Assembly: GCA_003162635.1 (NCBI GenBank)
Contig: PMNE01000109.1
Coordinates: 10,719-56,791, forward strand
Reading direction: 5' to 3'
DNA: 46,073 nucleotides
Origin: Ignavibacteriota bacterium
GTDB taxonomy: Bacteria; Bacteroidota; Ignavibacteria; UBA10030; UBA6906
Shown here: piece by piece, positions 18,043-46,005 of the stretch
Layout of the letters: each line of letters opens with the position of its first letter
How positions within the stretch are numbered: position 1 is the first letter of the stretch
Notes under the pieces: generated by a model
What the model saw: the letters and a program-made list of their open reading frames with translations, nothing else
What the model was told of the DNA's origin: nothing
Database searches by the model: none
Program-made: the position numbers and the translations under genes

Positions 18043-18851
18043 TGCCCTTCAACCATACACACATTGATGCGTCCCTCCGGCATATCCGCGCGCAGACCGA
18101 TAGTACACCCGATATCGCCCTGGTGCTGGGATCAGGCCTGTCGGATTATGCGGACACATTGCATGCGTCGGCATCCGTGGCGACGCATGCAATCCCCTAC
18201 TACCCCAGGCCGACTGTTCCCGGCCACAGGGGGAATCTCGTCTTTGCCCGCCTCGGCGCACACCGACTCCTTCTTTTTCAGGGACGCGTTCATTTCTACG
18301 AATCGAACGACTACAGCCAGGTCCTCTATCCCGTAGCGATTGCCCACCATTTGGGTGCGCGAATTCTCATCGCAACGAACGCCGCAGGGGGAATCAACCC
18401 ATTATTCTCCTCCGGGGATCTGATGCTCATCGAAGAACAAATTGATCTCACCCTTCACGGAGTCACCTCCGGAGAGACACGGGGTCGGCGGGAGCCGATC
18501 TTCGATTGCTTCCTGAAATCCGTTGCCGCCGAGACGGCACGGAATGATGGAATTCCCATGAAGCGCGGCGTGTATGTTGCTGTCAAGGGACCTACGTACG
18601 AGACTGCCGCTGAAGTGGAAATGATCCGAAGATGCGGAGGTGATGCAGTAGGAATGTCAACAGTGAAGGAGACCGAACTCGCGGCCGACTATGGAATGCA
18701 GGTGCTCGGTATCTCCTGCATTACGAACAAGGCAACCGGACTCGGATCAAGCAAATTGAATCATACGGATGTGACGGAAGCAGGCAGGCGTGTCCGTGAT
18801 TCACTTTCCCAGCTTCTCACGCACATCATCGAGGCGCTCCCCCCCTCCTGA
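18042..18851 (+). CDS. punA: Purine nucleoside phosphorylase (trimeric PunA/XapA type)
   Basis: LVLGSGL, VPGHRG, QGRVHFYE, TNAAGG, GPTYETAAE, VGMST, SCITN; TGATG coupling to nupC. Confidence 0.92.
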   Translation: MPFNHTHIDASLRHIRAQTDSTPDIALVLGSGLSDYADTLHASASVATHAIPYYPRPTVPGHRGNLVFARLGAHRLLLFQGRVHFYESNDYSQVLYPVAIAHHLGARILIATNAAGGINPLFSSGDLMLIEEQIDLTLHGVTSGETRGRREPIFDCFLKSVAAETARNDGIPMKRGVYVAVKGPTYETAAEVEMIRRCGGDAVGMSTVKETELAADYGMQVLGISCITNKATGLGSSKLNHTDVTEAGRRVRDSLSQLLTHIIEALPPS

Positions 18852-20990
18852 TGGGGACGCAATCTCTCGTTGGCCTTCCCAAGGCGAATCCGGGCCGGCG
18901 GAAGGCCGCCCGGAAGCAACGCGTGAGGAATTCATTATGACAAGAAAACTGCTGAAAACCATCGCCCCCGCCGCAAAGACCGGTTCGAGTTTTCCCATCA
19001 CGGCTAATCCCATTCCTGCGGCATTATAGCAAAAGGCCCAGAGAAAATTCCAGACGATTGTCCGGCGCACGCGGCGGCCGAATGCAAAAATCCACGGCAC
19101 CTGCGCGATATCATCGTCCATGATCACGACATCAGAGGCCATGCGTGAGAGATCTGTTCCGGAACGGAAAGAAATCCCTATGTTCGCCGCAGCAAGCGCC
19201 ACAGAATCGTTTATCCCATCCCCCACCATGGCTGCCAGCGCACCGGTTGCTCGCTTCTCTGTGATAAGCAATGCCTTCTCCTCCGGCCGAAGGCGCCCTC
19301 GAACCTCTCCGTGAAAGCGAAGCGCAGAGGCCACTCCGGCAACCTGTTCCTCTCCGTCCCCCGATACCAAATGCAGATGCATTCCCATCTGTTCAAGCCG
19401 GCGGACCGCAATGACGGATCCTCTCTTCAGGTCATTGGTAAACACAAAAGTACCGCATTTCACGTCATCTACCCAGACAGAACTTCTTGTCAGTAAAGCA
19501 ATTATACTGTTTGACTTTAATTTTTCTCTACTATCTCTTTCGGCTCCAATAAGTACGACGTGCCTTCTTCCACTACCCGTGTCAACATATCCACTGATCC
19601 CCTCGCCGGGCAGGGACCTGACTTCTTCCCCCGCAAAGAGGTCGCTGTGCACCGCATCGGCATATCGAACGATTGCTCTCCCTGCAGGATGCTCAGAGTG
19701 CAGTTCTATTGCTCGGGCCATCCCCAGGACATCGGCCTCCCCCCATTCCTCGCCGAGCCGCTCAAACCCCACAACACAAAGATTCCCCTCCGTCAGTGTC
19801 CCTGTTTTGTCCAAAAAGACCTCTCCAACCTCGCCGGCAGTTTCCAGCGATGCCATCGACTTGAACAGAACCCCCCTTTTCGCCGCTGCCGTATAGCCGA
19901 TGAAACCGACCAGCGTCGCTCCAATACCCAATGCGCAAGGACAGGCGATCAGGAGCACAGAAAGGCCGTTCAACAGCCCCGTCGTCGGGTTCGACCACAC
20001 ACCCCAGAAGACCCCCGTGGCAAGGGAGAGAAGAATACTGCCTGGAACAAACACGCGCGTTATCCTCTCAGCGAGAAGTTGTGCAGGGGATCGCGCCGTC
20101 AGGACCTCTTCGGTCAGGGCGTGTAGCCGCGCCAGCAGGCCGCTCCCCGCTGTTGCTCCTGCAACCATGACGATCGTCCCGTCGTAATTGAGTGAGCCAC
20201 CGATCACTTTGTCCCCGCCGACCTTCGTGACGGGGGCTGACTCACCGGTCAGCATCGCCTCGTTGACCGACGTGGCGCCCTCCTTGACCTCGCCGTCCAC
20301 CGGAATCTCCTCACCCGGCAGAATCCTTATCCTGTCACCAGGCGCGAGAACATCCACCTCAACAACATGTTCCTCGCTCCCGTCGATACGCCGGGCTCTT
20401 CCCCTCACGTTGCCAAAAAGATGCTGTAGCGCATGCGAGCTTTTGAGCCGTGCATTCGCCTCAAGGTAGCGGCCAAAGGTGACGAGAACGAGCACCATCG
20501 TCGCCGTGTCGTAATAGATCGCAGATCCTCCCGTAAACGTGGAATAGAGCGAGAGAATGAACGCTGCGGTCGATCCGCATGCAATCAGCGTGTCGACGCC
20601 GGGAATGCCATTCCTCACTTCGCGGATCGCATTTCTGAGGTATGGCAATCCTATGAGGAGATAGACCGGGACAGAGAGGACGAAGACAAGGTAGGTGATC
20701 GAGCGGCGGGACTCCGGCTCTACTGGGAAGAGAAAGGAGAGCTTGTTCCCGTAGAGCGCCCAGGTGAAAGTCATCGCATTCATCGCCAGGAATCCGGCGA
20801 GTCCCAGGCGGGCCAGGAAGAGGATGGGGACCCCTTCTTCCCCTTTTTCCCCCGTAATCGTGTTCACCAGGTAGCATCCGTAGCAGCAGAAACGTCTCCG
20901 ATGCGCTCGCCCAAAGCCGGGGAACTGCACTTCAGGTATCGGAAGACCGCATTGCTCGCAAAGGTCCGGATTGGCGGATTCGACCATCAT
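18801..20990 (-). CDS. P1B-type Cu(I) ATPase, FixI/CcoI-like
   Basis: N-terminal CEQCG...FCCYGC metal site, LTGES, IACPCALG, DKTGTLT, SEHP, GDGIND, YN and MVFSS Cu(I) signature; no GMxCxxC HMA domain. Confidence 0.88.
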   Translation of the reverse strand: MMVESANPDLCEQCGLPIPEVQFPGFGRAHRRRFCCYGCYLVNTITGEKGEEGVPILFLARLGLAGFLAMNAMTFTWALYGNKLSFLFPVEPESRRSITYLVFVLSVPVYLLIGLPYLRNAIREVRNGIPGVDTLIACGSTAAFILSLYSTFTGGSAIYYDTATMVLVLVTFGRYLEANARLKSSHALQHLFGNVRGRARRIDGSEEHVVEVDVLAPGDRIRILPGEEIPVDGEVKEGATSVNEAMLTGESAPVTKVGGDKVIGGSLNYDGTIVMVAGATAGSGLLARLHALTEEVLTARSPAQLLAERITRVFVPGSILLSLATGVFWGVWSNPTTGLLNGLSVLLIACPCALGIGATLVGFIGYTAAAKRGVLFKSMASLETAGEVGEVFLDKTGTLTEGNLCVVGFERLGEEWGEADVLGMARAIELHSEHPAGRAIVRYADAVHSDLFAGEEVRSLPGEGISGYVDTGSGRRHVVLIGAERDSREKLKSNSIIALLTRSSVWVDDVKCGTFVFTNDLKRGSVIAVRRLEQMGMHLHLVSGDGEEQVAGVASALRFHGEVRGRLRPEEKALLITEKRATGALAAMVGDGINDSVALAAANIGISFRSGTDLSRMASDVVIMDDDIAQVPWIFAFGRRVRRTIVWNFLWAFCYNAAGMGLAVMGKLEPVFAAGAMVFSSFLVIMNSSRVASGRPSAGPDSPWEGQREIASPSGGGERLDDVREKLGK

Positions 20991-21073
20991 CAGGTGTGCT
21001 GCCGGTTTTCGCAGGGAGATTGTTGTTTCGAAGATACGGAATTGGAGGCGAACAGGAAAGCCGGATGGAAAGG

Positions 21074-21502
21074 TCAGGCGGTCGGGACGGGGAATTGGTA
21101 CAACATCAGGTAAATGATCACGCCGGTCACAGAGACGTAGAACCATATGGGCAGCGTCCACCGGGCGATCGCCTTATGGGCCCTGAACGATCGCCGCAAT
21201 GCGCGGACCAGCGTCATTCCCGCAAGCACAGGGACAGCCGCCGCGAGGGCCGTGTGGGAAATAAGTATCGAAAAGTAAACGCTCCGTACCACACCCTGTC
21301 CATGGTACGGCATGCTTCCAATGTTCGCATGATAGACAACATACGACGTGAGAAAGAGGGACGAGCAAACCAGAGCGGAAATCATGGCGGCGCGATGAAG
21401 CCGTGTGCGCCCCTCCCTGATCGCGTAGTATCCCGCCGCCAGAAAGATCGACGAGCCGGCATTCAGCAGCGCATTCACATGAGGAAGGAAATGAATATCC
21501 AT
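21074..21502 (-). CDS. DUF420 (CtaM/YozB-like) oxidase-associated membrane protein
   Basis: LPHVNALLN...HRAAM...LISHTALA...HKAIARWTLPIWFYVSVTGVIIY. Confidence 0.9.
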   Translation of the reverse strand: MDIHFLPHVNALLNAGSSIFLAAGYYAIREGRTRLHRAAMISALVCSSLFLTSYVVYHANIGSMPYHGQGVVRSVYFSILISHTALAAAVPVLAGMTLVRALRRSFRAHKAIARWTLPIWFYVSVTGVIIYLMLYQFPVPTA

Positions 21503-21507
21503 TGCGA

Positions 21508-22410
21508 TCAACTGATCAATCGGTCAACGGCCATCATCGCCATCAGCAGAGGAAGATACGCAAGGGAAGCGATGAACAACTGCCGCGCACCCGCATTCGT
21601 CCTCCGACCCGCGAGGCGCAAGGCCGGGATGAGGAAGAGGCACCCGAGAGAAAATGATCCCGCTGCATACACCCATCCCAGCGTTCCCGTGACCGACAGC
21701 ATCAGCGACACCGGGAGAAGTCCGATCGTGGCGGCAAGGACATGGCGACTTGTCCTCTCCCCGCTCGTATCGAGGACTGTCAGAAGCCGATACCCTGCGC
21801 TCTTATAATCGTCACGGTACAGCCATGCAAGTGAAAGGAAATGCGGCATCTGCCAGAGAAAGAGGATGCCGAACAGAATCCATGCGCCGGGCTCCGCTGC
21901 ATTCCGCGCTGCTGTCCAGCCCATCACCGGGGGAAGCGCACCCGGGATCCCCCCAACAAGCGTCGACCATGGAGTGATCCGCTTCAGCGGAGTGTAGAGG
22001 AAAAGATACGTCACGCTGGTGACTGCCGCAAGAAACGCGGTCAAAACGTTGGTGGCGAGCCCAAGGTAGACGATCCCCGCAATGGAGAGGAACGTCCCAA
22101 ATGTCAGTGCTTCCACAGGCAACAGGCGGCCGGCGGGAAGCGGCCGGCGTTCCGTTCGTTTCATAAGGATATCGAACCGGCGCTCCATGTACTGGTTCAG
22201 CGCGCCCGCACCCCCTCCCACCATCCCGGTTCCTGCGGCAACCGAAAGAAGGATTCCCGGATGAACCGAGCCGCCGGCTCCCAAACAATACCCTGCAACG
22301 GCCGTCAACACGGAAAGGAGAGTGAGCTCCGGCTTTGCCAGCGAGAGATAATCAAGCACGCGGGTCCATTCGATGGCGATGACACCCCGTCCCTCGATCT
22401 TCATTCTCAT
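21508..22410 (-). CDS. ctaB: Protoheme IX farnesyltransferase (heme O synthase)
   Basis: LAKP, NQYMERRFDILMKRTERRPLPAG, YTPLKR, GGIPGALPP, LWQMPHF. Confidence 0.96.
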   Translation of the reverse strand: MRMKIEGRGVIAIEWTRVLDYLSLAKPELTLLSVLTAVAGYCLGAGGSVHPGILLSVAAGTGMVGGGAGALNQYMERRFDILMKRTERRPLPAGRLLPVEALTFGTFLSIAGIVYLGLATNVLTAFLAAVTSVTYLFLYTPLKRITPWSTLVGGIPGALPPVMGWTAARNAAEPGAWILFGILFLWQMPHFLSLAWLYRDDYKSAGYRLLTVLDTSGERTSRHVLAATIGLLPVSLMLSVTGTLGWVYAAGSFSLGCLFLIPALRLAGRRTNAGARQLFIASLAYLPLLMAMMAVDRLIS

Positions 22411-23432
22411 TGCGCACCTGCTTCAGCGACCAGTGCCGGGACGGGTGGACGCGCAGCCGCGGGCAGCACGAAGAATCGGAATACCCGGGCCGTAACAAAG
22501 ACGGTCGTGGCAAGCAGAAGCGCCCCAACAGCAACGTGCGCCGTCGCAATCTGGACCCCCTTTCCGGTCCAGACCGTGAGCGCGCCGAGAAGAAGCTGAA
22601 CGAGAATCAGCATCATCATGACGATCGCCGGCTCCCGCAGTCTCGACTCGCCGGGATACGATCGAAGGATATGACGCCCAAAACCGAGTACCACGCATGC
22701 AGCCACAAGCGCTCCTCCCCTATGAAGAAAATGGATCCAGATTTGGCCGATGCTGACCGGAGGCATATCGTACCAAGCCATGCGAATCTGATTTACCGCC
22801 GCAAGCCCGCCCTCATCCATGGGAGGCAGGAGCGTGCCGTACGTCAAAGGAAAATCAGGGATGGCAAGACCGGCGCTGCTGTGGCGCATCCATGCACCGA
22901 GAAAAAGCTGGAGAAGGACGACGAACACCGCACTGACCGCCAACCATCGGGTTGCACGGGCCATCGCCGATACACTCGCCGACGGCTGCATCCAGGCAGC
23001 CGAGGTGACAAGAGCGAGAAGGATTGTCAGGGAAAAGAAAGATTGCGCGAGCATTGCGTGAGCGGCAGAAACAGGCGTAGGGAGGAGAAACAGGACAGTC
23101 AGTCCCCCGAGCACTCCCTGCGTCACGACGGCACCAAGCGAAAGAAAGCCAAGAACCCTTACCCAGCGTCTCTTCTCCACCCGCCAGAGGGCTATTGCCA
23201 GAATGACCGTCAGGATTCCCACGAACGTGGCGATCATGCGGTGGCCGTGTTCATAGAAGATCCCCCCCACCATGGGGGGCATGAGCTGGCCGTACGAGAG
23301 CGGCCAATCGGGCACCGCGAGCCCCGAATCGGTGCTCGTCACCAGTCCTCCGGCGATGAGAAGCCCGAATGTGCAGCAGGCCGTGAAAACAGCGAACCGG
23401 TGGACGCCCGGATGAAAGTGATCTGTCCTCAT
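22407..23432 (-). CDS. ctaA: Heme A synthase (COX15/CtaA)
   Basis: GLAVPDWP, EHGHR, QGVLGGLTV, AAHAML, HFLHR, TAHVAVG. Confidence 0.9.
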   Translation of the reverse strand: MRTDHFHPGVHRFAVFTACCTFGLLIAGGLVTSTDSGLAVPDWPLSYGQLMPPMVGGIFYEHGHRMIATFVGILTVILAIALWRVEKRRWVRVLGFLSLGAVVTQGVLGGLTVLFLLPTPVSAAHAMLAQSFFSLTILLALVTSAAWMQPSASVSAMARATRWLAVSAVFVVLLQLFLGAWMRHSSAGLAIPDFPLTYGTLLPPMDEGGLAAVNQIRMAWYDMPPVSIGQIWIHFLHRGGALVAACVVLGFGRHILRSYPGESRLREPAIVMMMLILVQLLLGALTVWTGKGVQIATAHVAVGALLLATTVFVTARVFRFFVLPAAARPPVPALVAEAGAQ

Positions 23433-24376
23433 TGTTGGAGTGCCGCCTCCTGGTCCTTTATCCACTCCTGAAATCCTGTCGCCGTGACCACCGTGACCGT
23501 CGCCCGCATCCTGTAGTGACCAAGGCCGCACAGTTGCGAACATGCAACCTCGATCGGAGAATACGGGCCCAGGCGTACTTCGCCAATCCCCGCATCGGCG
23601 AGCTTCCCGGCAACATCGGGGGTGATGCCGTCCCCTTTCGCAAGCAGGACATTCCCTTCCTTGTCCCTGTATTCCTGCTGCGCCACGAAGACGGAGAACT
23701 TGTCCGTGTCGGTCGCGCGATCGATCCGATAGAAACGCGCGACTGCCTCCTGGACTTCGTCACTGGTCATCGTGGGCGTAAAACTCAAACGGACCGACTG
23801 TCCTGGAACTGCATCCTGCTTCACGCGGAAATAGGGGATGCCGAAACTGTGGATCATGTCCTTGCTTGTGAGCCGGACAATCACAGGCCTGTTCACCGGT
23901 ATGACCAACTGGTTGACTGTTGTGATATCGTCCTTCGCAGCCGGATCGTTCCGGTCGAGTCCCAACGGGTTTTCCGGACTGACCAGCGAGATATCTGTGC
24001 GCCCGAAGATGCCGTCAGGTCCCGGATAGTGGAAATTCCAGGCGAATTGCTCCCCCACAACCCTGACCACCGTCGCGTCCTTTTCGGAGGGGATGTCTTT
24101 GACGAGCTTCGCCCACAAAGGAAGATCGAACGCTGCCAGGGCCACTCCCTCGAAGATTGCGACCGCGGCAACCACGACATACGGGAACTTGCTCTTGAGC
24201 CCTCCGTAGCGCGCCGCTGGATTCTTCGAACGCCGGAATCGGAGAAGGCTATAGACGTAGAACGCCCCCCAGCCGGCAAAGAGGACGAACATCAGCCAGT
24301 GAATCATCGCCATGGAGCCGTCGATCTCATGGGCATACGTTGAAGCTTCCGGTGGCAGCCCGAGGAATTCCTGCAT
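23429..24376 (-). CDS. coxB: Cytochrome c oxidase subunit II (CuA), no fused cytochrome c
   Basis: 2 TMs, GEQFAWNFHYPG, SKDMIHSF, KQDAVPG, CSQLCGLGHYRM; no CxxCH. Confidence 0.92.
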   Translation of the reverse strand: MQEFLGLPPEASTYAHEIDGSMAMIHWLMFVLFAGWGAFYVYSLLRFRRSKNPAARYGGLKSKFPYVVVAAVAIFEGVALAAFDLPLWAKLVKDIPSEKDATVVRVVGEQFAWNFHYPGPDGIFGRTDISLVSPENPLGLDRNDPAAKDDITTVNQLVIPVNRPVIVRLTSKDMIHSFGIPYFRVKQDAVPGQSVRLSFTPTMTSDEVQEAVARFYRIDRATDTDKFSVFVAQQEYRDKEGNVLLAKGDGITPDVAGKLADAGIGEVRLGPYSPIEVACSQLCGLGHYRMRATVTVVTATGFQEWIKDQEAALQQ

Positions 24377-24396
24377 GAGTGATTCTTCTCCTTGCC

Positions 24397-24660
24397 TCAG
24401 TGGAGGCTCTGGCCTCCACCGATGGCGCGAACGACCTTTCCCGCCCGTCGACGGAGTGATATGACGAACGCCGCAATCCCTCCCAGCACGCTCCCGGTCA
24501 ATCCCATGAGGAGGAGGACGGCGTCATTGAGGCCGTCTGCCGTCTGCGCATCGGCCTGACTGAAGCAGAGCGGGCAGGCGACTGACAGAGTAACCCCGAT
24601 GGTCGTAAGAAGCGCAGCCGCAACTGCGACACCGATGGCTCTTGCGTGCATGGCGTTCAT
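24397..24660 (-). CDS. Small membrane protein with CPxC motif in the cox operon
   Basis: Signal-like N-terminus, ACPLCF, C-terminal TM followed by RRR; GAGGAG upstream. Confidence 0.7.
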   Translation of the reverse strand: MNAMHARAIGVAVAAALLTTIGVTLSVACPLCFSQADAQTADGLNDAVLLLMGLTGSVLGGIAAFVISLRRRAGKVVRAIGGGQSLH

Positions 24661-24766
24661 TCTCCTCTTCCGTTTCCGGCAATCGCTCTCCCGGATCAGC
24701 GACGCAGCGGCATTCTTCGAACATTCCGCCCCGGCTGCCGGGACTGCTCCTCGCCGGGAGAGCTTG

Positions 24767-24994
24767 TCAGTTCCGTGAAGTGCGCATGTTCAACGATTTC
24801 ATCCCCCGAAACTTTCCGATCACCCAGATCTCGTACAGGAGAAGGAAAAGCGCAGCCACGAAGGAAATTGCAATCCCCCAGAGGTACTGGGACTCTCCCG
24901 TCCTGGCATACCCCCGGATGGTCCACACCCCGCATCCGAGGGCAAGAGCGACCGAGAGGGTAATGAACGCGATATGAAACACCTTAAGCGACAT
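24767..24994 (-). CDS. Small 2-TM hypothetical protein in the cox operon (75 aa)
   Basis: MSLKVFHIAFITLS...; starts 2 nt after the coxD stop with GGAGG upstream; appears only as the C-terminus of a longer track ORF. Confidence 0.7.
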   Translation of the reverse strand: MSLKVFHIAFITLSVALALGCGVWTIRGYARTGESQYLWGIAISFVAALFLLLYEIWVIGKFRGMKSLNMRTSRN

Positions 24995-24996
24995 TG

Positions 24997-25296
24997 TCAA
25001 CCTCCGCGTGAAAAAACTTCCGCCGTCGGAAGAAGGAGGAGTGCAAAGAAAAAGAATACGGTGAATGCAAGCAGAATGGGGATAAGCCGCTTCTCGGAGA
25101 GAAGATGCATGAAGAAACAGGCAACCAGGGATCCCTTGATGGAGGCAATGAAGAGGGCGATGATGACGGCTTCGCCCGTCGACAGATGCAACATTGCCAC
25201 GGACACCGTCAACGCTGTCAGTCCGAGGAGGGCGGCGAAGACAATGATGTACGCTTTTACGTGTGTACGCACGTCCACGGGGTGCGAATCGCTCAT
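24997..25296 (-). CDS. coxD: Cytochrome c oxidase subunit IV
   Basis: YIIVFAALLGLTALTV...IASIKGSLVACFFMHL (COX4_pro signature). Confidence 0.9.
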   Translation of the reverse strand: MSDSHPVDVRTHVKAYIIVFAALLGLTALTVSVAMLHLSTGEAVIIALFIASIKGSLVACFFMHLLSEKRLIPILLAFTVFFFFALLLLPTAEVFSRGG

Positions 25297-25308
25297 TGCA
25301 CGTTTCTC

Positions 25309-25899: not shown

Positions 25900-25906
25900 G
25901 GACCCC

Positions 25907-27652: not shown

Positions 27653-27801
27653 GGGGAAATCTGGAGATGTTCCACGCTCGCTCCTCCTTTCTCTTGATGA
27701 TACCCCAGGGGATCCCAAACATCTGCTCTGTCGATTTCCGCCCCTCCCGTTCGCCGTCGCGAGTCCCCCCTGCTCACCCTCTCTCCCTGCCGGATCGACT
27801 C

Positions 27802-35646: not shown

Positions 35647-35647
35647 C

Positions 35648-37916: not shown

Positions 37917-37919
37917 GTG

Positions 37920-39260
37920 TCAGCCCCTCTCCTTCAGCGGTGGCGGCAACTGTTCCTTCACCTCCCACATGGACACCGCCGGGAGCACTTTGACGAAAAT
38001 CATGAAGAGGAAAAAGAACCACGCAAAACTCCCGATGACGATCATGGAGTCCGTCAACGTCGGGTGGTACAACCCCCAGGCAGAGGGAAGGTAATCATGC
38101 GCAAGAGATGTGACAATGATGACGAACCGCTCGAGCCACATGCCGATTTCCACGCTGATGCAGATCACGACGAGGCACGGAATGCTTGTTCGTATTTTCT
38201 TCGACCAGAGCAGCAGGGGGACAAAGACGTTCGTGGTGATCAACAGCCAGAACGCCCAGGCGTACTCTCCCACCATACGATAAAGGAAGATCGCCTTCTC
38301 ATATTTCTCGTTTCCGTACCAAGCCGCAAAGAACTCCACCATGTACGCAAATCCGACCACGAGGGCGGTGAAAACGATGAACTTCGCGAGACTCTCCAGG
38401 TGATGCATCGTAATATACTTCTCGATGCCGAATGATCGCCGAAGGGGGATGAGAAGAAGAACCACCATGGCGAGTCCCGAATGGATCGCCCCCGCAACGA
38501 AGTACGGTGCGAAAATCGTGCTGTGCCACCCCGGAATGATGCTCATCGCAAAATCCCAGGAGACGATGCTGTGGACGGAAATGACCAGAGGAGTCGCCAG
38601 CGCCGCAAGGAACACATAGGCCGCCGTGTAGTGCTTCCATTGCGTGTCCGTCCCCTGCCACCCCTGTGCGAGAAAACCATACACCTTCTTTCTCCACCCC
38701 TTCACCCTGTCGCGAACGATAGCCAGGTCGGGAAGCATCCCCACGAGAAAAAAGGTGCTGCTGACGGTCATATACGTCGTGATGGCAAGGACGTCCCACG
38801 CCAGCGGTGATCGAAAATTCGGCCACAGTCCGTCGAAATTCGGAACCGGAAGTATCCAGTGCGCAACCCAGACCCTGCCAAGGTGGATGAACGGGAAGAG
38901 TCCGGCCGTCATCAGTCCGAAAACGGTCACTGCTTCCGCGCTCCGGTAGACCGCAGCCCGCCACCGTACGCGGACGAGGAAGAGAATCGCCGAGATGAGC
39001 GTTCCCGAGTGCGCAATACCGACCCAGTACACGAATGTGGTGATGTACATGGCCCAGCCCACGGGACTGTTCTTTCCCGCCAGCCCGATCCCGGTTTGGA
39101 TCTGCATCCACCACGCCCACCCTCCCGCCATCACGAGAAGGAAGAGAACGGTGAGGAGCGCCCAGTACAGCCGACCCGCCGGGCGCATCGTCTTCATCAG
39201 ATCGATATCGGTGTCGCTATACGTAAGCTTGTATTCCATGCCTGCCCGATCCGTTGTCAC
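37920..39260 (-). CDS. actC: ActC quinol-oxidising NrfD/PsrC-family subunit
   Basis: YITTFVYWVGIAHSGTLISAIL, HLGRVW, NFRSPLAWD, VISVHSIVSWDFA, GWHSTIFAPYFVAGAI; GTGA coupling. Confidence 0.95.
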   Translation of the reverse strand: MTTDRAGMEYKLTYSDTDIDLMKTMRPAGRLYWALLTVLFLLVMAGGWAWWMQIQTGIGLAGKNSPVGWAMYITTFVYWVGIAHSGTLISAILFLVRVRWRAAVYRSAEAVTVFGLMTAGLFPFIHLGRVWVAHWILPVPNFDGLWPNFRSPLAWDVLAITTYMTVSSTFFLVGMLPDLAIVRDRVKGWRKKVYGFLAQGWQGTDTQWKHYTAAYVFLAALATPLVISVHSIVSWDFAMSIIPGWHSTIFAPYFVAGAIHSGLAMVVLLLIPLRRSFGIEKYITMHHLESLAKFIVFTALVVGFAYMVEFFAAWYGNEKYEKAIFLYRMVGEYAWAFWLLITTNVFVPLLLWSKKIRTSIPCLVVICISVEIGMWLERFVIIVTSLAHDYLPSAWGLYHPTLTDSMIVIGSFAWFFFLFMIFVKVLPAVSMWEVKEQLPPPLKERG

Positions 39261-42208
39261 GCGGTGATCCTCTTCAGGTACGTCACTGCCGGACGGGTGT
39301 TCAACTCCTCCAGCATGTGGTATGGTCTTGGCTCCCTTTCTTCCGTGAGCTTGCTGACCTGGCTCTCCGGGTCCTTCAGGTCTCCAAACGTGATGGCCTG
39401 GGCGGGGCACGCCTGTTGGCAGGCGGGCGCGATCTCACCGTCCACCAGTTCACGGTGCTCCATCCGCGCAGTGTTCTTTCCCTCCACGATGCGCTGGACG
39501 CAAAAAGTGCATTTCTCCATCACGCCCTTTGTTCGCACAGTCACATCGGGATTGAGCTGCCAGTTGAGCGGCTCCGGGATGTCGTGATCGAACCAGTTGA
39601 ACCGCCGGACCTTGTACGGACAGTTATTTGCGCAGTAGCGGGTTCCAATGCAGCGGTTATAGACCTGGCCGTTCAACCCCTCGTCGGTATGATAGGCCGC
39701 GTACACCGGGCAGACGGTCTCACACGGCGCAGCTCCGCATTGCTGGCACAGGACAGGAATGAAACCAGCCTTCGCCGGCTCCCGTTCTGCTCCGGTGGCA
39801 GCTTTGTCGGCGTAATACCGGTCGATTCGGATCCACGCCATCTCCCGCCCGTTCATCACCTCCTGCTTGCCGACCACCGGGACATTGTTCTCGGCATAGC
39901 ATGCCGTTACGCACGCACTGCACCCCGTGCACTTGTCGACGTCGATCGCCATGCCCCAGTGGTGCTTCAGATATTCCTGCGGCGGGTAAAGCGAAGGTGC
40001 ATTGACAGGCGCCGCTTCTCCCCCTCGTACCAGTGCAGCCAGTGGAATTTCCTGTATGATTTCCCGGTCGAATTCTGATTCCGCTTCCTGCACTGAGGCG
40101 AGGGCAATCTTTCCGGGGAGCTTCACAAGCTCTACCTTCGTCCCACACCACAGCACGCCTCCCGATCCATCCGCAGACGGTTTCGGATCCAGCAGCGCGG
40201 TGACATTCACCCCTACGCCGTTCGCGTACCTCCCGTAAGAAGTATGTCCCTGTCCGATCGGAATGGCAACGCAACCGACCCTCAACCCGCGCTTGATGTA
40301 GGCAGGCAGTTCACAGCGTGCATACGGGGAAGAGACCTGAATCCGATCGCCGTTCGTCACCCCAAGCCGGACAGCGTCATCGGGGCTGAGTTCGATCCAG
40401 GAGCCCCAGACAAGCCGTGTGATCGGATCGGGCATCTCCTGCAGCCAGGGCTTATTTGCGCCCCGACCGTCATAGTGAGCAATCGAGGGAGAGGAAAGCA
40501 ACGTGAAGGTCTTGCCCGAAAGGGGCGGGGCATCCTTCGGTCCGCAAAGGTCGGTTGCCGCAAGAGTTCGCGCAAGCCGCACCTGCTGCGGGGGAAGCGT
40601 TTCCCACGCGCCGCCCCGGGCCAGAGATTCCACCCAAAACTCTTCGAACGTTTTCCCTTTCCCACACCGGGCATGAATTGTTTTCCACCGCTCCATGACG
40701 TACACGTGGAAATCGGGTGCGGCAAACGAGCCTGCCCGGCCGAGCCGGCGTCCGGTGTGCAGCAGGATATCCCCCAGCATCTTCGTCCCAAAAACCGGCT
40801 GCATCGCAGGTTGCATCACGCCATGCACCCCTTCCCGGGGTTCATAGTCGCCCCACGATTCAAGGGGGGTGTGGATCGGCAGGACGAGAGTCGCAAGGGA
40901 AGCCGTCTCGTCCATCACGCTGGTACACGCAACGATGAACGGTACCTTCGCCAGAGCCGCCGCGATCCCCGATGATGAGGGGATCGTGAAGACAGGATTC
41001 ACCTCGGAGAGGAAGAGTGCAGGCACCTGATTCCGTTCCATCTGTCGAAGTAGTCGATCCATGTCGGCATAGGTGTTCAGCGTTCCAGGGCTTTCCGCTC
41101 CCTCGAACCGGATCGAGCGGCCGACGTTGCCGCAGACATAGTTCAGAAGATTCACCGCGGCCGCCGTTTGCGCTCCGAACTCCCCTTCGATCACCGCTCC
41201 CCCAGCAATGGCGAGGCTGGACGGCGACTTTGCGAACGCCCGTCCGAGTTCCACGATACGGTCAACTGTCAGCCCGGTTGGCCACGACATCTGCTCAGGT
41301 CCGAATCCTTCTACCAGAGCACTGATACGTGTCGTCTCGGCGACGGAAAGGCGCGAGAGGCCTTCCCCGACCACGACGGAAACAAAGGCAAGTGCCAGGT
41401 TGCCCAGCATATCCGGATGCACATCCACCCACGCATCCGCATTGGCCGCGGTCATGGAAAGCCGCGGGCCGAAATACGCCAGCGTGTTTCGCCTTCCCGA
41501 TTCTCCGAATCCTCTCTCCCCGGCGAATCCCCGTGCAAAGGCGACGGGAGAGAGCCATGTTTCCAGAAAATCCGTGCCAAACGAGTAGATCGTATCGACG
41601 CCTGCAAACTCGTAGACTGGAACAGTGGCGGCACCAAACACCCGCTCGTTCCCTTTCTTCAGCGCCTCGTGCCCGAACGGTTCGTACATCAGGAGATTCT
41701 TCGAACCGACGGAGGCAAGCCATTCCCCCAGCAGCGCACGGAGACTCCCTGTCTGAAGTGAACTGATCCATACGACATCCCTCCCCTTCCCCTGACGGAG
41801 AGTCTCCTGGAGATGCGACAGCACAACGTCCTCCGCTTTCTCCCATGTCGCCGGTTCCCATCCTCCGGTCGCCGTCCGTAAGAGAGGCGTCTGGATTCTG
41901 TCCGGATGGTAGAGCCCCTGCAGTGATGCCTGACCGCGGGCGCACAACGCTCCATGGTTGACGGGGTGCAGAGGATTCCCTTCCGCCTTCGTCGCCCGTC
42001 CTTCGCGGACCCGGATGTTCACACCGCAACCCGCGGGACATTCCCTGCATACGCTCGCGTACCACACCGACTTCCCCGGTATGATCTCTTCGTGAGGGAT
42101 GATATACGGGATCAGGCTCTTCGGCGCCTTCGGTGTGCATCCCGGGAGGGTCGTCGCAACCGTCGTGGCGCCAATGATCTTGAGGAAGTCCCTACGCTTC
42201 AGGTCCAT
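39257..42208 (-). CDS. actB: ActB: Tat lipoprotein with molybdopterin-oxidoreductase-like domain and Fe-S domain
   Basis: KRRDFLK + TLPGC; DGRGANKPWLQEMPDP; CTGCSACVTAC, CQQC..PCETVCP, CIGTRYCANNCP (3Fe-4S type), RTKGVMEKCTFC, ACQQACP. Confidence 0.93.
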   Translation of the reverse strand: MDLKRRDFLKIIGATTVATTLPGCTPKAPKSLIPYIIPHEEIIPGKSVWYASVCRECPAGCGVNIRVREGRATKAEGNPLHPVNHGALCARGQASLQGLYHPDRIQTPLLRTATGGWEPATWEKAEDVVLSHLQETLRQGKGRDVVWISSLQTGSLRALLGEWLASVGSKNLLMYEPFGHEALKKGNERVFGAATVPVYEFAGVDTIYSFGTDFLETWLSPVAFARGFAGERGFGESGRRNTLAYFGPRLSMTAANADAWVDVHPDMLGNLALAFVSVVVGEGLSRLSVAETTRISALVEGFGPEQMSWPTGLTVDRIVELGRAFAKSPSSLAIAGGAVIEGEFGAQTAAAVNLLNYVCGNVGRSIRFEGAESPGTLNTYADMDRLLRQMERNQVPALFLSEVNPVFTIPSSSGIAAALAKVPFIVACTSVMDETASLATLVLPIHTPLESWGDYEPREGVHGVMQPAMQPVFGTKMLGDILLHTGRRLGRAGSFAAPDFHVYVMERWKTIHARCGKGKTFEEFWVESLARGGAWETLPPQQVRLARTLAATDLCGPKDAPPLSGKTFTLLSSPSIAHYDGRGANKPWLQEMPDPITRLVWGSWIELSPDDAVRLGVTNGDRIQVSSPYARCELPAYIKRGLRVGCVAIPIGQGHTSYGRYANGVGVNVTALLDPKPSADGSGGVLWCGTKVELVKLPGKIALASVQEAESEFDREIIQEIPLAALVRGGEAAPVNAPSLYPPQEYLKHHWGMAIDVDKCTGCSACVTACYAENNVPVVGKQEVMNGREMAWIRIDRYYADKAATGAEREPAKAGFIPVLCQQCGAAPCETVCPVYAAYHTDEGLNGQVYNRCIGTRYCANNCPYKVRRFNWFDHDIPEPLNWQLNPDVTVRTKGVMEKCTFCVQRIVEGKNTARMEHRELVDGEIAPACQQACPAQAITFGDLKDPESQVSKLTEEREPRPYHMLEELNTRPAVTYLKRITA

Positions 42209-42551
42209 CGTTCACGAGCTGTTTGATGTGAGTGGCCAGCCGAGTGTAGTGTCTTGACCGCTGGTGAAAAGAGATCCCGAATGCCACCGTCGCCGTAAGC
42301 CATGGAATCAGCACAGCCGCGCTGCGAAGGAACGATCCTCCCGCCACGTGCCCCTTGCCGAGCAGCACGTCGTACAGGAGAAACACGTCGACGAGTCCCA
42401 GAGCAGCGAGCGATCCGTACATCGCCTGGCGATAGCGGCGGGCAATGTTCCGGCAATAGGCCGCCTGCCTGGCCGGAGAACTTTCCTGCACGGCCAGCGG
42501 CAGATCCCACCGCGAGATATGTCGTCCGGCATCGTGGATGGTGGCGGCCAT
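42192..42551 (-). CDS. Hypothetical 2-TM protein between actA and actB (119 aa)
   Basis: ATG 4 nt after the actA stop; two hydrophobic helices; stop overlaps the actB start by 17 nt. Confidence 0.6.
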   Translation of the reverse strand: MAATIHDAGRHISRWDLPLAVQESSPARQAAYCRNIARRYRQAMYGSLAALGLVDVFLLYDVLLGKGHVAGGSFLRSAAVLIPWLTATVAFGISFHQRSRHYTRLATHIKQLVNDGPEA

Positions 42552-42555
42552 GATC

Positions 42556-43074
42556 TCACCGATGGCAAGTGTAACAATCGACCGGGGCGGCATGCTGGCG
42601 ATGACAGTCAACGCAGAAAGCCATGTCCGCAAGATTGACGGCCGGCCGGACTTCCGCCATGGCCTGGATCTCGCCGTGGCATTTCTGGCAGGGGATCATT
42701 TTGGCCACGTGGGGGTAGTGATTAAAGTAGACGAAATCGCCGATCACGTTCACCCGCATCCATGGGATCGGTTGGTTCTTCTGGAAGGCATCACGAAGCC
42801 GGATAATCTCGGGCCTGTTCGCTGCAACAAGCTGGTGGCATCCCATGCAAAGGCGTTCCGAGGGAATACCCGCCGCAGTTCCCCTCCGGACGCCGCCGTG
42901 GCAATACTGGCATTGGATTTTATTGTCCCCGGCGTGGATCTTGTGGCTGAATGCAATCGGCTGCCGCGCCCCGGTGTCGGGACGGTTGCAGCCATTCATC
43001 ACCAGCGTGACGGAGAATCCGAAGAACGCGGCAAGAGCGAAGCGAACAACCGAATGGAGCCGCGGCGTCATCAT
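42556..43074 (-). CDS. actA: ActA pentaheme cytochrome c
   Basis: QPIAFSHKIHAG, CQYCH, CMGCH, FNH, CQKCH, CVDCH, CYTCH; hydrophobic N-terminus ending MNGC. Confidence 0.9.
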   Translation of the reverse strand: MMTPRLHSVVRFALAAFFGFSVTLVMNGCNRPDTGARQPIAFSHKIHAGDNKIQCQYCHGGVRRGTAAGIPSERLCMGCHQLVAANRPEIIRLRDAFQKNQPIPWMRVNVIGDFVYFNHYPHVAKMIPCQKCHGEIQAMAEVRPAVNLADMAFCVDCHRQHAAPVDCYTCHR

Positions 43075-43748
43075 GGCGGTTTCTTTCTGAGCGCTTCCAA
43101 TTCCGCCGCGCTCCACGGCGCCCGCACGGCATGCTGCTTCCGCACGGAATCGACCTGGGCAGCCGTCACCGCTCCTCCCTTGTTCCCCCACGCCGAACGA
43201 ACATGGGTAAGAACGGCAGCGATTTCATCGCTCGACAATTTGTCGTGGAACTGGGGCATTTTATTGTCGAACGTCTTTCCCTTCACTCCAATCTCGCCCT
43301 GCAATCCGTAGAGAAGTATCCTGATCGGAGTTTCGCCGTCTTGCAGAAGCCATTCCGACGCCACGAGCGGCGGGTATTGACCGGGAATGCCGAGTCCGCT
43401 CGCCTGGTGGCACGCCTGGCAGACCCCTGCAAAGACGACATCACCCTTCACCTCCGTCTTCACCGGACCGGAAGCCGCAACACCGGGGTCTTCCACCTCG
43501 TGCGCAACGGCGCTGAAACTACCTCCGTATCTCCCAAGATAGAACCCCATGATAAACAGGAGCAATACGCTTGCAGTCCACACCCACCACGGCGTCGGTT
43601 CAAACCCCTCTCCCGGTTCCTCCTTTTCCCGTCCGACGACATTCATATGAATGCGCTGAACATCCGTCTCCTCCCCCCTTTCGTCGGTGAAGTCCTTGCC
43701 GCGAGGCGGAGTCGGGGGGGGGCTATCTCCTTGTTTTTGCTGTGTCAT
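43071..43748 (-). CDS. Membrane-anchored monoheme cytochrome c (CcoP-position protein)
   Basis: EPTPWW + one TM, CQACH, YPPL, KMP axial Met, 'IAAVLTHVRSAWGN'. Confidence 0.85.
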   Translation of the reverse strand: MTQQKQGDSPPPTPPRGKDFTDERGEETDVQRIHMNVVGREKEEPGEGFEPTPWWVWTASVLLLFIMGFYLGRYGGSFSAVAHEVEDPGVAASGPVKTEVKGDVVFAGVCQACHQASGLGIPGQYPPLVASEWLLQDGETPIRILLYGLQGEIGVKGKTFDNKMPQFHDKLSSDEIAAVLTHVRSAWGNKGGAVTAAQVDSVRKQHAVRAPWSAAELEALRKKPP

Positions 43749-44340
43749 CGGAAGCGGCACCCTGGCTGACAGGATATGTATGGTTCAGACTCAAGAGATA
43801 CGCGACGAGTGCCTTCGCTTCTGCCGTGGGCACCACCACTTTCCTCGCGGGCGCGAGCGAATCGGGCAGCACGAGCGCTTCTTCACCCGGACCCGCCGTT
43901 GGTTTCTCCTCGAACAGCCACGGATGCGGAGGCATGATGGAGCCCTTTGTCACGAGCCGCGGATTATAGAGGTGCAGCAAATGCCACTCCTCGCTCGTTT
44001 GCCTGGCACCGATATTAAAGAGGTCCGGTCCCGTCCGCATCGTTCCGAGCAAATGGGGTTTGTCGTACAGGTAGTCTGCGGGAACCGACGGACGCCCCCA
44101 GAAGCGGGCTTGATCCGCGCCGAATCCCTCGGGACGAACCTGCTGGCTGTGGCAGTACAGACATCCCTCCCGCACATAGATGCTGCGGCCATACAGTTGC
44201 TCGGCCGTGTAGCGCTTGAGTTCCGGCGGCGCCTCGATCCTGGCGAGCATCATGTCGGGGACGCCGACGATGCCGATCCACCCGAGGGCGAATGCTGCGA
44301 GGACTCCGAGGAAGAACACGAAGGAACGGATGAACATCAT
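43723..44340 (-). CDS. ccoO: cbb3-type oxidase subunit II
   Basis: GRSIYVREGCLYCHSQQVRP, GTMRTGPDL, HLYNPR, SIMP. Confidence 0.94.
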   Translation of the reverse strand: MMFIRSFVFFLGVLAAFALGWIGIVGVPDMMLARIEAPPELKRYTAEQLYGRSIYVREGCLYCHSQQVRPEGFGADQARFWGRPSVPADYLYDKPHLLGTMRTGPDLFNIGARQTSEEWHLLHLYNPRLVTKGSIMPPHPWLFEEKPTAGPGEEALVLPDSLAPARKVVVPTAEAKALVAYLLSLNHTYPVSQGAASDDTAKTRR

Positions 44341-45800
44341 GGGGCCGCCACCTCCTCCGCCTTCCGGAACCATACAGGCGCGAACCTTTTGGGTCCGGCT
44401 CTATGGATCACCAGAAGAAAGTGGTAGGCGAAGACGCAATGACCGATTGTCATCAGGGTTCCTCCGACCGCTCTTCCCCACAAGTACGGCTTCGTGAGAT
44501 TCACCGTATCGATGAAGGGGATTGAAGGAGTATTCATCGCCAAACCCTGAAGCCATCCCCCCAGCGTCAACGACAGGAAATAGATCGCGATCCCGGCGGC
44601 ACTCAACCAGAAGTGAACCTTAATCAGATTCGGATACGGCCATTCCCATTTGGCGATACGTGGCATGATGTAATACACCGCGCCAAAGAGGACCATGGTG
44701 ACGAAGGCGTACATGCCGAGGTGGGCATGGCCCACCGTATAGTGGGTGAAATGGGCCACTTCCTGAACGGAGCGCGTCGCTTCGAGCGATCCCTGAAAAC
44801 TTGTGGCGGTGTAGGACATTGCACCGAAAACCACAAACCGGAGGGTCGGACTGTACCGTATCATGCTGAGGTGTCCCAGGGCGGTCATGTGATGGTTCAC
44901 GGCAACCGCAAGCACGGGAACGAACATCATCAAGCTGGCGACGATCGAGACGGAAATCGCCCACGTCGGGAGAGGTCCCCCTACCAGGTGGTGCAATCCG
45001 TTCCAATTGTAGAAGAGGGCGAAAGACCAGAACCCGAGCAGGCCGAGGTAATAACTGTAGATCGGTCTTCCGATGACCTTGGGGATGAAGTAGTAGGCGC
45101 CCGCAAGACCGATGGGAGTGAACCACACCGTTATGGCGTTGTGCCCGTACCACCAGTTCATTGCCGCCTCCCCCACCCCTTGGTAAAGGCCTGCGTTGGC
45201 GATCACGTAGAGAAGCGGGAACCAGGTCAGCGAAGCGAGAATATACCAAAGACTCACATACACGTGTTCCACCTGCCGTGCTGCGAACGTCCTGAACATT
45301 GACAGGGCGAAGAGAATAAATGCAAGAGCAATGACGGCGGCGGCGGGAAGAGGGAATTCGAGCCATTCCATTCCCCCGCTGTAACCGAGAATCACAAGGG
45401 CGGAGCCGAGGAAAAGACCGATATTCCATAAGATCGCCGATAGGAAGAGAAGCGCCGTCCAGCGTATGTGAGTCCTGCACAGGCGTCCCATCAGCCAGAC
45501 GATCATCCCGCTCCCGGCAAGGGAGATCCAACCGTATGTCACTGCGTTGAGGTGAACCGGCCGTAGTCGGCCGAAGGTGATGGGTCCCGCTCCTCCAAGC
45601 CAATCGGGGAGATCGAGCTTCACCGAGGCAATCAACCCCATGAGGGAACCAATCAGGAGCCAGGCGACGCCAGATGCGAGAAAGAGGACCGTAGGACTTG
45701 CGGCCGAATCATCGATGCCAATCCGCGTCAGTTCGTCACTGAGACGTTGGTCCGCTGCGATGGTCCGGGAGACCTGCCTCTCAGCCGGAGGTCTGCTCAT
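44337..45800 (-). CDS. ccoN: cbb3-type (C-family) oxidase subunit I, divergent subtype
   Basis: FGRLRPVHLN, EWLE, WWYGHNA, YYFIPK, FYNWNGLHH, GHAHLG. Confidence 0.93.
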   Translation of the reverse strand: MSRPPAERQVSRTIAADQRLSDELTRIGIDDSAASPTVLFLASGVAWLLIGSLMGLIASVKLDLPDWLGGAGPITFGRLRPVHLNAVTYGWISLAGSGMIVWLMGRLCRTHIRWTALLFLSAILWNIGLFLGSALVILGYSGGMEWLEFPLPAAAVIALAFILFALSMFRTFAARQVEHVYVSLWYILASLTWFPLLYVIANAGLYQGVGEAAMNWWYGHNAITVWFTPIGLAGAYYFIPKVIGRPIYSYYLGLLGFWSFALFYNWNGLHHLVGGPLPTWAISVSIVASLMMFVPVLAVAVNHHMTALGHLSMIRYSPTLRFVVFGAMSYTATSFQGSLEATRSVQEVAHFTHYTVGHAHLGMYAFVTMVLFGAVYYIMPRIAKWEWPYPNLIKVHFWLSAAGIAIYFLSLTLGGWLQGLAMNTPSIPFIDTVNLTKPYLWGRAVGGTLMTIGHCVFAYHFLLVIHRAGPKRFAPVWFRKAEEVAAP

Positions 45801-46005
45801 CGTTCTGCAACCCTGGTTTCTTGAACAATTGGTCCGTGGGTTTCCCTACATGCTCCACGCTGTCGAAGATGACGGAGGCACCTTCATTCAATTGCTTCAC
45901 AGAGAATTGTTTCGTGCGAAGAGCCCAGAAAAAAGCGGCAAGGGCAAGAGAAGCACCGACGATGGCAACGATCACGATGACGAGGAGAGCAGGAAGGAGC
46001 GTCAT
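45781..46005 (-). CDS. ccoS: cbb3 oxidase maturation protein CcoS/FixS
   Basis: Single TM followed by FFWALRTKQF...GASVIFD. Confidence 0.8.
   Translation of the reverse strand: MTLLPALLVIVIVAIVGASLALAAFFWALRTKQFSVKQLNEGASVIFDSVEHVGKPTDQLFKKPGLQNDEQTSG

Follow-up and report, generated by a model that had tools for sequence, protein, structure and literature searches.

The stretch of DNA considered here (G000:C110:10719-56791), called the window below, is 46,073 nucleotides (nt) long and comes from an uncultured peat-soil bacterium of the Ignavibacteriota, whose genome is 98% complete and amounts to 3.1 Mb on 113 contigs. It holds two adjoining gene sets for oxygen respiration, and in each the genes of a complex III and a complex IV are contiguous on one strand: an alternative complex III (ACIII) with a C-family (cbb3) oxidase in module 1, and a Rieske/cytochrome b6/octahaem complex with an A-family (aa3) oxidase in module 2. 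In our view these are probably two operons, each of a complex III with a complex IV, that were inherited separately and have become neighbours by chance in this genome, one being an ACIII inside a Bacteroidota-type cbb3 operon and the other a Nitrospina-type complex with a cupredoxin and an A1-type aa3 oxidase.

Gene content of the two modules

Genes were identified by Pfam and NCBIfam searches and by searches of PDB sequences. All of the respiratory genes (18801-46005) are on the minus strand, to which the coordinates below refer unless stated; bshC (33751-35595), which lies between the modules, is alone on the plus strand and is a bacillithiol synthesis gene (PF10079, 359 bits), a neighbour and not a respiratory gene. 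A 160-residue open reading frame (ORF) at 35478-35960 was rejected as spurious, having no family match and an out-of-frame-like composition. A scan for sigma-70 promoters and terminators over 33300-36000, whose model does not extend to Bacteroidota promoters, found nothing at the bshC/actF junction. The gene content confirmed the original prediction, made from the sequence alone, that two quinol-to-O2 gene sets lie side by side on one strand. The same prediction described the genes as largely coupled by ATGA or GTGA overlaps, which overstated the case: exact 4-nt start/stop overlaps were found at three junctions only (actD/actE, ctaA/ctaB and ctaB/DUF420). The remaining intergenic gaps are mostly 50 nt or less; larger ones precede actB (347 nt), coxI (about 150 nt) and the small gene orf87 (106 nt).

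Module 1 (35648-46005) has the order ccoS-ccoN-ccoO-monohaem c-actA-(119-residue ORF)-actBCDEF. The FixS-type cbb3 maturation gene ccoS (45781-46005; PF03597, E 2.6e-5), whose homologues precede ccoN in relatives, has its first in-frame ATG at codon 23 of the open frame. The catalytic subunit gene ccoN (44337-45800; PF00115, 255 bits) is clearly assigned to the C family by the match of its product to PDB 3mk7_A (E 2.4e-61). It is followed by ccoO (43723-44373; PF02433 FixO, 127 bits), encoding the monohaem subunit II with one CxxCH motif and one transmembrane (TM) segment, and by the gene for a membrane-anchored cytochrome c of 229 residues (43071-43760; PF00034/PF13442). This cytochrome is a CcoP-like third oxidase subunit with a c552-like domain and a weak ccoP match (TIGR00782, E 2.8e-6). 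It has a single CxxCH and is therefore monohaem, unlike the dihaem CcoP, and the same form recurs after ccoNO across the phylum. No ccoQ, ccoG or ccoH was recognised within the window, to which the search for these genes was confined.

The act genes begin with actA (42556-43191; PF14522), for a pentahaem cytochrome c with five CxxCH motifs and one TM segment. The fused B1 plus B2 subunit of 983 residues is encoded by actB (39257-42208); it carries a twin-arginine translocation (TAT) signal and molybdopterin, Fe4S4 and Fer4 domains (PF00384, PF04879, Fer4 families), is QrcB/QrcC-like, and combines a molybdopterin-like B1 part with a 4Fe-4S B2 part. The NrfD-like quinol-binding membrane subunit is encoded by actC (37920-39410; PF03916), with matches to 6f0k_C (E 1.3e-135) and 6btm_C (E 1.4e-133). 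Then follow actD (37401-37916; PF11821, 129.5 bits), actE (36901-37404; PF13442), for a monohaem cytochrome c with one CxxCH, and actF (35648-36943). ActF, with about nine TM segments, had no Pfam or NCBIfam match and was identified by PDB sequence search (6btm_F, E 9.3e-20; 6f0k_F, E 4.2e-18). Pentahaem ActA, monohaem ActE, two NrfD-like subunits (ActC and ActF) and ActD are together what would be predicted of an ACIII.

Between actA and actB is an ORF of 119 residues with two hydrophobic stretches (42192-42551), for which there was no Pfam match. It begins just past the actA stop, overlaps the actB start and so fills the 347-nt gap. It is kept only in G020 (51% identity over 118 residues), the closest genome with a cbb3-linked ACIII, and could be an extra small ACIII subunit.

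Module 2 (21074-33649) has the order Rieske-cytochrome b6-subunit IV-octahaem c-blue copper protein-coxI-III-IV-two small ORFs-coxII-ctaA-ctaB-DUF420. The Rieske 2Fe-2S protein (32945-33649; PF00355) has the cluster ligands in a CTH...CPCH motif. The cytochrome b is split into a cytochrome b6 (32103-32894; PF00033, 152.7 bits; ExtP-like, 284.8 bits) and a petD-like subunit IV (31188-32072; PF00032), which at 294 residues and with about seven hydrophobic segments is approximately twice the usual length. CxGG is the b6f-like haem ci site in cytochrome b6 and PEWY the Qo motif in subunit IV; the first (as C.GG) was not found in the b6 protein, nor the second (as P[EDV]W[YF]) in subunit IV, where the sequence is KAPWYF. 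A plus-strand ORF of 604 residues antisense to b6 and subunit IV (31182-32996) has no family match and is most likely a GC-rich shadow ORF. The octahaem cytochrome c (28560-31166) has 868 residues, an N-terminal anchor, matches to cytochrome c families and exactly eight CxxCH motifs; no PDB relative was found for it at E 0.001 or better.

The next gene (27802-28548) encodes a membrane-anchored protein of 248 residues with a cupredoxin domain and an extra beta-sandwich domain. An alignment of 21 sequences shows no variation at His141, Cys178, His181 or Met184, and the ligand loop is short and amicyanin-like (C-x2-H-x2-M). Foldseek searches with an AlphaFold (AF2) model of pLDDT 79 matched plastocyanin (7pcy, TM-score on the target 0.74; 5fc9, 0.78), amicyanin (0.69) and a Nitrosopumilus cupredoxin, the fold matches spanning 0.69-0.78. 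The modelled fold and the predicted copper ligands point to a type-1 (blue) copper protein.

The oxidase genes start with coxI (25907-27652; PF00115, 458.6 bits). The open frame is longer, at 703 residues, and overlaps the cupredoxin gene; the NCBIfam alignment begins at residue 144 and there is a GTG at codon 123. Contigs from two DNA runs (X2 and X9) both have four extra bases (CACT and CACG) after position 27672, in the stretch that separates the end of the cupredoxin gene from the probable start of coxI, and this difference may be a small assembly error or a strain difference in the window. For these reasons the first 120 or so codons are probably untranslated and the start is probably the GTG. 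Next come coxIII (25309-25899; PF00510, 83 bits) and the prokaryotic coxIV (24997-25296; PF03626, 45.8 bits); an ORF of 355 residues (24767-25834), in another frame from these two genes, was rejected as spurious since it had no family match and an out-of-frame-like composition. Two small ORFs with two TM segments each follow: one of 75 residues (24767-24994), which is weakly conserved and is the C-terminal part of the matches to 'orf355' in relatives, and one of 87 residues (orf87, 24397-24660), which is 29-49% identical in relatives at the same position. The coxII product (23429-24376; PF00116, TIGR02866) has the CuA motif CSQLCGLGHYRM and no haem c domain (no CxxCH). The module is completed by the genes for haem A synthase (ctaA, 22407-23543; PF02628), haem O synthase (ctaB, 21508-22410; PF01040) and a DUF420 membrane protein (21074-21511; PF04238, 142.5 bits), beyond which lies a gene for a CcoI-like P1B-type copper/heavy-metal ATPase (18801-21161; TIGR01525, 460 bits; TIGR01511, 399 bits).

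A helix VI glutamate (HPEVY) distinguishes A1 from A2 oxidases, which have YSHPAVY. CoxI of the window has AHPEVY, as have three relatives checked, and with the CuA site of CoxII and the CoxIII and CoxIV families this makes the enzyme an A1-type aa3 oxidase. The A1/A2 classification is referred to in two papers (PMC5492636, PMC6431628).

Conservation of each module in relatives

The original prediction that the ACIII is operonic with a cbb3 oxidase was borne out, as the order recurs in relatives. Adjacent genes for CcoO, the 229-residue cytochrome and ActA were found in 15 genomes of four families (G000, G004, G008, G020, G039, G082, G341, G410, G434, G492, G050, G061, G080, G099 and G109) and in a metagenome contig (L120). 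The complete order ccoS-N-O-c-actABCDEF-ATPase is on one contig in G039, G050, G061, G080, G109 and L120; in G082 it is pieced together from two loci that overlap. ATPase homologues, 38-42% identical, are directly after actF in these seven and in G099. The cytochrome itself was found in 5 of 40 relatives, and in the phylum sample its full-length matches were always preceded by ccoNO. Nine loci from other classes of the phylum (L091-L099) have ccoN-ccoO-cytochrome-P1B ATPase without act genes, whereas in the class of the window actA-F lie between the cytochrome and the ATPase. The act genes are therefore an insert in a cbb3 operon. One cbb3-linked operon, on contig 10 of G082 (L065), has actD and actC about 3.4 kb apart and actC and actB about 1.8 kb apart, a spacing which suggests that genes were inserted inside it.

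The class also contains ACIII of another kind. ActD was found in 126 of 151 genomes of the class sample, in two score groups; the ten low scorers (129-143 bits), to which ActD of the window belongs, are exactly the cbb3-linked ones as far as the contigs permit a check. Ten loci of high scorers were fetched, and in seven actABCDEF is followed by A-family oxidase genes, the other three having no oxidase nearby. The A-family genes are in the order coxII-I-III-IV in four loci (L080 without coxIV); L076, L083 and L084 have them in other orders or only in part. Two genomes with an A-family-linked ACIII belong to the window's own family, and 12 of the 14 ACIII-linked A-family oxidases checked have the A2 motif.

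ACIII of the window is a member of a separate lineage, whose genes are nearly always next to those of C-family oxidases. In a tree of 22 ActC sequences, from which G101 was omitted (L076; matched over 195 residues only), the cbb3-linked clade has support of 100/100 and a branch of 1.76. Metagenomes were then scanned with the ActC alignment; the best 80 of at least 589 ACIII loci were taken, 79 of them distinct, on contigs that carry no taxonomy. Loci were called informative, by a threshold of our own, when the flanks of actC reached 6.5 kb or more upstream and 5.5 kb or more downstream. There were 21 of these, of which four had a C-family oxidase, five an A-family oxidase and 12 none. An alternative order, actB-C-D-F-A followed directly by ccoN-ccoO and a monohaem c gene, is present in L133, L160 and L170.

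A second tree had 44 rows. It omits G099 (L069), G090 (L071), G101 (L076), L134 (identical to L133), the A-family-linked L159 and L194, whose flanks are short, L168 (a COX2 match only, classed as 'short_none') and all 53 loci with short flanks and no oxidase ('short_none'), and it keeps L155, L180 and L160 despite their short flanks. A single group of this tree (SH-aLRT 90) takes in 13 of the 14 C-family-linked rows and contains two sister clades, one of the window type (10 rows, support 100) and one with actBCDFA-ccoNO (3 rows, 98). The C-family label needs two changes on the tree against a mean of 12 when shuffled, a count that is inflated by relatedness and is not a probability. As the group holds two gene orders, the association of ACIII with cbb3 is older than either arrangement. 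CcoN is 29-35% identical between the two architectures, while CcoN of other Bacteroidota classes is 51-61% identical to that of the window. These identities suggest that the ACIII was associated with cbb3 before its lineage entered a native cbb3 operon of the Bacteroidota.

The order of module 2, an A-family oxidase after a Rieske/b6/octahaem unit, likewise recurs. The octahaem protein was scanned against one genome per species, giving 41 loci. Thirty-three are from metagenome-assembled genomes titled Ignavibacteriota, Ignavibacteria, Bacteroidota or Chitinophagales (this last probably mislabelled), with 57-70% identity. Subunit IV, b6 and Rieske genes precede the octahaem gene in the window order in 32/32 of the related loci that reach upstream; coxI is present in 22/22 that extend past the cupredoxin gene, and 12 continue through coxII, ctaA and ctaB to DUF420, where the cluster ends. 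The gene bshC is divergent from the Rieske gene in 20 of the 22 relatives' loci that reach far enough. Counted row by row, about 25 of 40 relatives have an octahaem orthologue, full-length or split between contigs; an automatic tally of 30/40 at E 1e-20 or better counts paralogues of 30-40% identity too. Since both gene orders recur in many other genomes, the arrangement within each module is more than chance.

The other eight loci are of Nitrospinota type and have the four-gene Rieske-b6-subunit IV-octahaem unit only, with no oxidase nearby. Their b6 is about 72% identical to that of the window, their Rieske protein 52-61% and their octahaem protein 32-36% over the full length (residues ~1-856). 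Three of them (L035, L038 and L043) have two tandem Rieske-b6-subunit IV-multihaem c copies, head to tail, of which the upstream copy is the more divergent (b6 57-59% against 68-69%).

The oxidase half of module 2 is also found with other partners. On metagenome contig L159 (L159:3826-8583) actF is followed by genes for a cupredoxin 44% identical and a CoxI 73% identical to those of the window, and G160 too has a cupredoxin gene after actF. The cupredoxin therefore travels with the oxidase and not with a given complex III, and for this reason it is placed, conditionally, between the octahaem cytochrome and CuA. On another metagenome contig (L194:4121-15661) a bshC (58% identical) is divergent from actA-F, which occupy the position of Rieske/b6 in the window's lineage. 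From L194 and L159, complex III modules seem to have been swapped at a conserved locus.

Electron transfer and alternative readings

The gene content suggests a path for each module. In module 1, menaquinol would be oxidised at ActC, the iron-sulfur clusters of ActB would carry the electrons to the haems of ActA and to ActE, and from these they would pass through the membrane-anchored 229-residue cytochrome c and CcoO to CcoN and O2. In module 2, menaquinol would enter a Q cycle at Rieske/b6, with electrons then passing to the octahaem cytochrome c, possibly to the cupredoxin, to CuA of CoxII and so by haem a and haem a3-CuB to O2. The direction of flow, the roles of the 229-residue cytochrome and the cupredoxin as links, physical supercomplexes, and separate low- and high-O2 roles are all proposals at this stage, the dedicated supercomplexes for low and high O2 put forward in the original prediction being plausible.

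A stronger version of this proposal is tentative. In it, a separate ACIII lineage has co-evolved with cbb3 to form a hard-wired ACIII-cbb3 supercomplex, with the membrane-anchored monohaem cytochrome as its wire, and a second hard-wired line runs from Rieske/b6-octahaem c through the blue copper protein to A1 aa3, giving two insulated lines with no soluble carrier. If that were true, the assembly of ACIII with cbb3 would add a new class to the respiratory supercomplexes.

Equally tentative, and short of an even chance, is the opposite view that the gene fusions reflect shared regulation or biogenesis (copper, haem c, haem A), with a common carrier pool and exchangeable partners in place of dedicated pairs or supercomplexes. 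Other respiratory genes of the genome are relevant here. The genome contains no haem-copper oxidases other than these two and no other ACIII; contig 70 encodes a cytochrome bd oxidase, and on contig 98 (G000:C98, L059:2-2609, minus strand) genes for a Rieske protein (151 residues), an unsplit cytochrome b (359 residues) and a c7-type multihaem cytochrome lie together. This cluster is a third quinol:acceptor module of the genome. With it and the bd oxidase, electrons may cross between branches, and the original description of a dual-branch system does not cover the genome. A shared pool would also agree with the cupredoxin-coxI pair lying behind ACIII in L159 and behind the bc-type complex here, so that partners have been exchangeable over evolution, and with the 12 of 21 informative metagenomic loci that have no oxidase nearby; for Flavobacterium, an unidentified second acceptor of ActE is raised as one possibility in PMC8552683. 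Against it, the whole ActC clade stays with C-family oxidases through two gene orders, the canonical ACIII of the same class keeps its A2 oxidases, and the carriers encoded by the modules are all membrane-anchored, which favours short-range transfer.

That the cbb3-linked ACIII does not feed the oxidase at all, working in reverse or with another partner, is improbable. Reverse electron transport has been proposed for ACIII in neutrophilic Fe(II) oxidisers whose respiration uses cbb3 (PMC4643136, PMC6443915). The act genes, however, are placed between the oxidase subunit genes and the oxidase's copper ATPase in a tightly packed block on the same strand. It is about as improbable that the Rieske/b6/octahaem complex serves an acceptor other than aa3, whether extracellular or a nitrogen oxide, as discussed for relatives of the Nitrospina/Geobacter kind, the adjacency to the oxidase then being functionally meaningless. 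The four-gene module does occur without any oxidase in the eight Nitrospinota-type loci, and the best NCBIfam matches are ExtP, ExtQ and ExtS of a Geobacter selenite/tellurite cluster. The cupredoxin and coxI genes, however, are directly downstream in 22/22 loci of the lineage that reach far enough, with gaps of 11 to about 150 nt, and a CoxII without its own haem c domain needs a donor. The context of module 2 suggests a forward, O2-directed role for the Nitrospina-type complex.

Several points weigh against two separately inherited operons, each with its own oxidase, as the preferred reading. The third quinol module and the bd oxidase mean that the pairing of ACIII with cbb3 and of bc with aa3 is not exclusive in principle. 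The TIGR00780 score of CcoN, 249.8 bits, is under the NCBIfam equivalog cut-off of 583. The ACIII of L184 groups with A-family-linked ActC sequences despite ccoNO genes 4 kb upstream. The cbb3-ACIII operon is not uniform: the ATPase gene is not directly after actF in G008 or in G000 itself, G012 has ccoSNO-c without act genes, and G004 has an ActA-like gene with no actB within 5 kb. An FNR-type box (TTGATN4ATCAA with up to two mismatches) gave 23 matches against 16.1 +/- 3.8 expected, with none upstream of the Rieske gene or of ccoS. Contigs from RNA libraries cover 20400-40399 (X16 on 27 of 30 bins, X20 on 29 of 30), are mostly at least 99% alike (42/50 in X16 and 50/61 in X20) and include pieces that cross ctaA/coxII, actF/actE and actD/actC; they indicate presence only, with DNA carry-over possible, and carry no information on strand, level, operon structure or response to O2.

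Juxtaposition of the modules and comparison with known systems

The original prediction treated the region as a supercluster and suggested looking for the two arrangements together in other genomes. Each is conserved, as described above, and they were not found together. Act genes are absent beyond bshC from all 11 relatives' loci in which 5-7 kb of sequence is available on that side, and G039, G004 and G020 hold both modules on different contigs. Among the genomes examined, then, only this one has the modules side by side, and their placement is a local accident and not a unit. In the nearest relatives (L004, L006, L010 and L011) a radical-SAM gene (X) is next to bshC, while in the window genome X is just beyond ccoS, a junction that G020 shares. 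On the other side a phosphorylase gene (Y) comes straight after DUF420 in 10 of 11 relatives' loci, none of the 11 having an ATPase gene there, and in this genome Y is just past the ATPase. This genome thus agrees with the relatives except for two additions flanking the bshC-bc-aa3 block, [ccoS...actF] at one end and [ATPase] at the other. The flanks fit a usual cbb3-ACIII-ATPase operon that seems to be wrapped around the block. On contig 60 of G020 (L074:25-1335) a Mutator-family transposase gene (PF00872, E 1e-80) is directly downstream of actF at the contig end, which hints that the cbb3-ACIII block is near mobile DNA in this family.

A chimera near bshC, which had been named as a possible flaw and to which the lack of act genes beyond bshC in relatives and the transposase at the G020 contig end might be taken to point, can be set aside almost completely, since both outer flanks (X and Y) are syntenic with relatives, the GC content is even over the region (0.56-0.61) and the junctions are present in contigs of two DNA runs. 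Single contigs bridge bshC/actF in X2 (32688-38145) and X9 (33618-38807), and single contigs cross DUF420/ATPase in X2 (20400-32631) and X9 (20400-21767 and 5.3 kb beyond). One bridging DNA run carries strain differences. Of the words of 34000-37500, 98-100% are present in 14 DNA runs, many of which may be from the source or a sister sample and are not fully independent.

The side-by-side placement is not to be taken as one unit. Structural and genetic work on ACIII has so far concerned A-family oxidase partners only. One ACIII clade beside cbb3 genes, in two gene orders and several lineages, provides a testable candidate for an ACIII-cbb3 pair in microaerobic soil and peat bacteria. No description of an ACIII-cbb3 operon was found in the literature searched, which did not cover the main ACIII reviews or supplements and in which 'ACIII-cbb3' and 'cbb3-ACIII' occur as terms in no paper. 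The claim of an undescribed system may thus hold, within that literature, for module 1, whereas the octahaem part of module 2 matches an operon known from Nitrospina. Module 1 is the more novel part, with its ACIII-cbb3 architecture and its own ACIII lineage, and is worth following up; module 2 is a new combination of known parts, and its bc-aa3 pairing is ordinary in kind.

For module 1 the closest known systems are the ACIII-caa3/aa3 supercomplexes of Rhodothermus marinus and Flavobacterium johnsoniae, whose structures are described in PMC5928083 and PMC8552683 (PDB 6f0k, 6btm). The window likewise has all six of ActA-F and act genes contiguous with oxidase genes. It differs in that the oxidase is of the C and not the A family and is encoded upstream instead of downstream of the act genes, in the separate clade of its ActC and in the extra 119-residue ORF between actA and actB. 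Its actD and actE are separate genes, while many relatives in the class have long ActD frames of 380-420 residues; in I. album and M. roseus the two are reported as fused (ActDE; PMC3362086, PMC5492636). According to PMC6431628, ACIII is usually associated with A2 oxidases, and in the Ignavibacteria relative Melioribacter (PMC5492636) the act genes lie with those of an A2 oxidase, apart from the cbb3 genes. Compared with the canonical cbb3 system, CcoNOQP with ccoGHIS (P. stutzeri, 3mk7), module 1 shares CcoN, CcoO, CcoS and a CcoI-like ATPase, but its third subunit is the monohaem protein of 229 residues in place of dihaem CcoP and the quinol enzyme in its operon is ACIII in place of bc1. A supercomplex of bc1 with cbb3 is presumably what PDB entry 6xkw represents.

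Genomes with both ACIII and Rieske/b complexes are on record, for instance Ca. Thermochlorobacter (PMC3362086) and Fe oxidisers (PMC4643136). The original prediction regarded the pairing of a bc-type complex with an A-family oxidase as unusual; this did not hold, as 'superoperons' of bc1 with an A1 caa3 oxidase and of ACIII with an A2 caa3 oxidase are described for Acidobacteria in PMC8407424. As there, complex III and complex IV are in one operon in the window, and in its class too bc goes with A1 and canonical ACIII with A2. Unlike the acidobacterial bc1-A1 set, the bc part here consists of split b6/subunit IV, octahaem c and cupredoxin, CoxII has no haem c, and the bc genes are upstream of the oxidase, the acidobacterial A1 genes being upstream of bc1. 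The cbb3 operons of those Acidobacteria strains stand alone, unlike that of the window.

Module 2 is most like the Rieske-b6-subunit IV-octahaem operon, with its 'atypical octaheme cytochrome c', that PMC3578206 describes for Nitrospina gracilis and as conserved in Ca. Kuenenia and Ca. Methylomirabilis. The four genes are in the same order in the window, but the eight Nitrospinota-type loci have no oxidase or cupredoxin gene downstream. Module 2 would show that a blue copper protein can link a Rieske/b6/octahaem complex of the Nitrospina/anammox type to an ordinary aa3 oxidase, and its lineage offers aerobic heterotrophs in which the Nitrospina-type complex could be studied.

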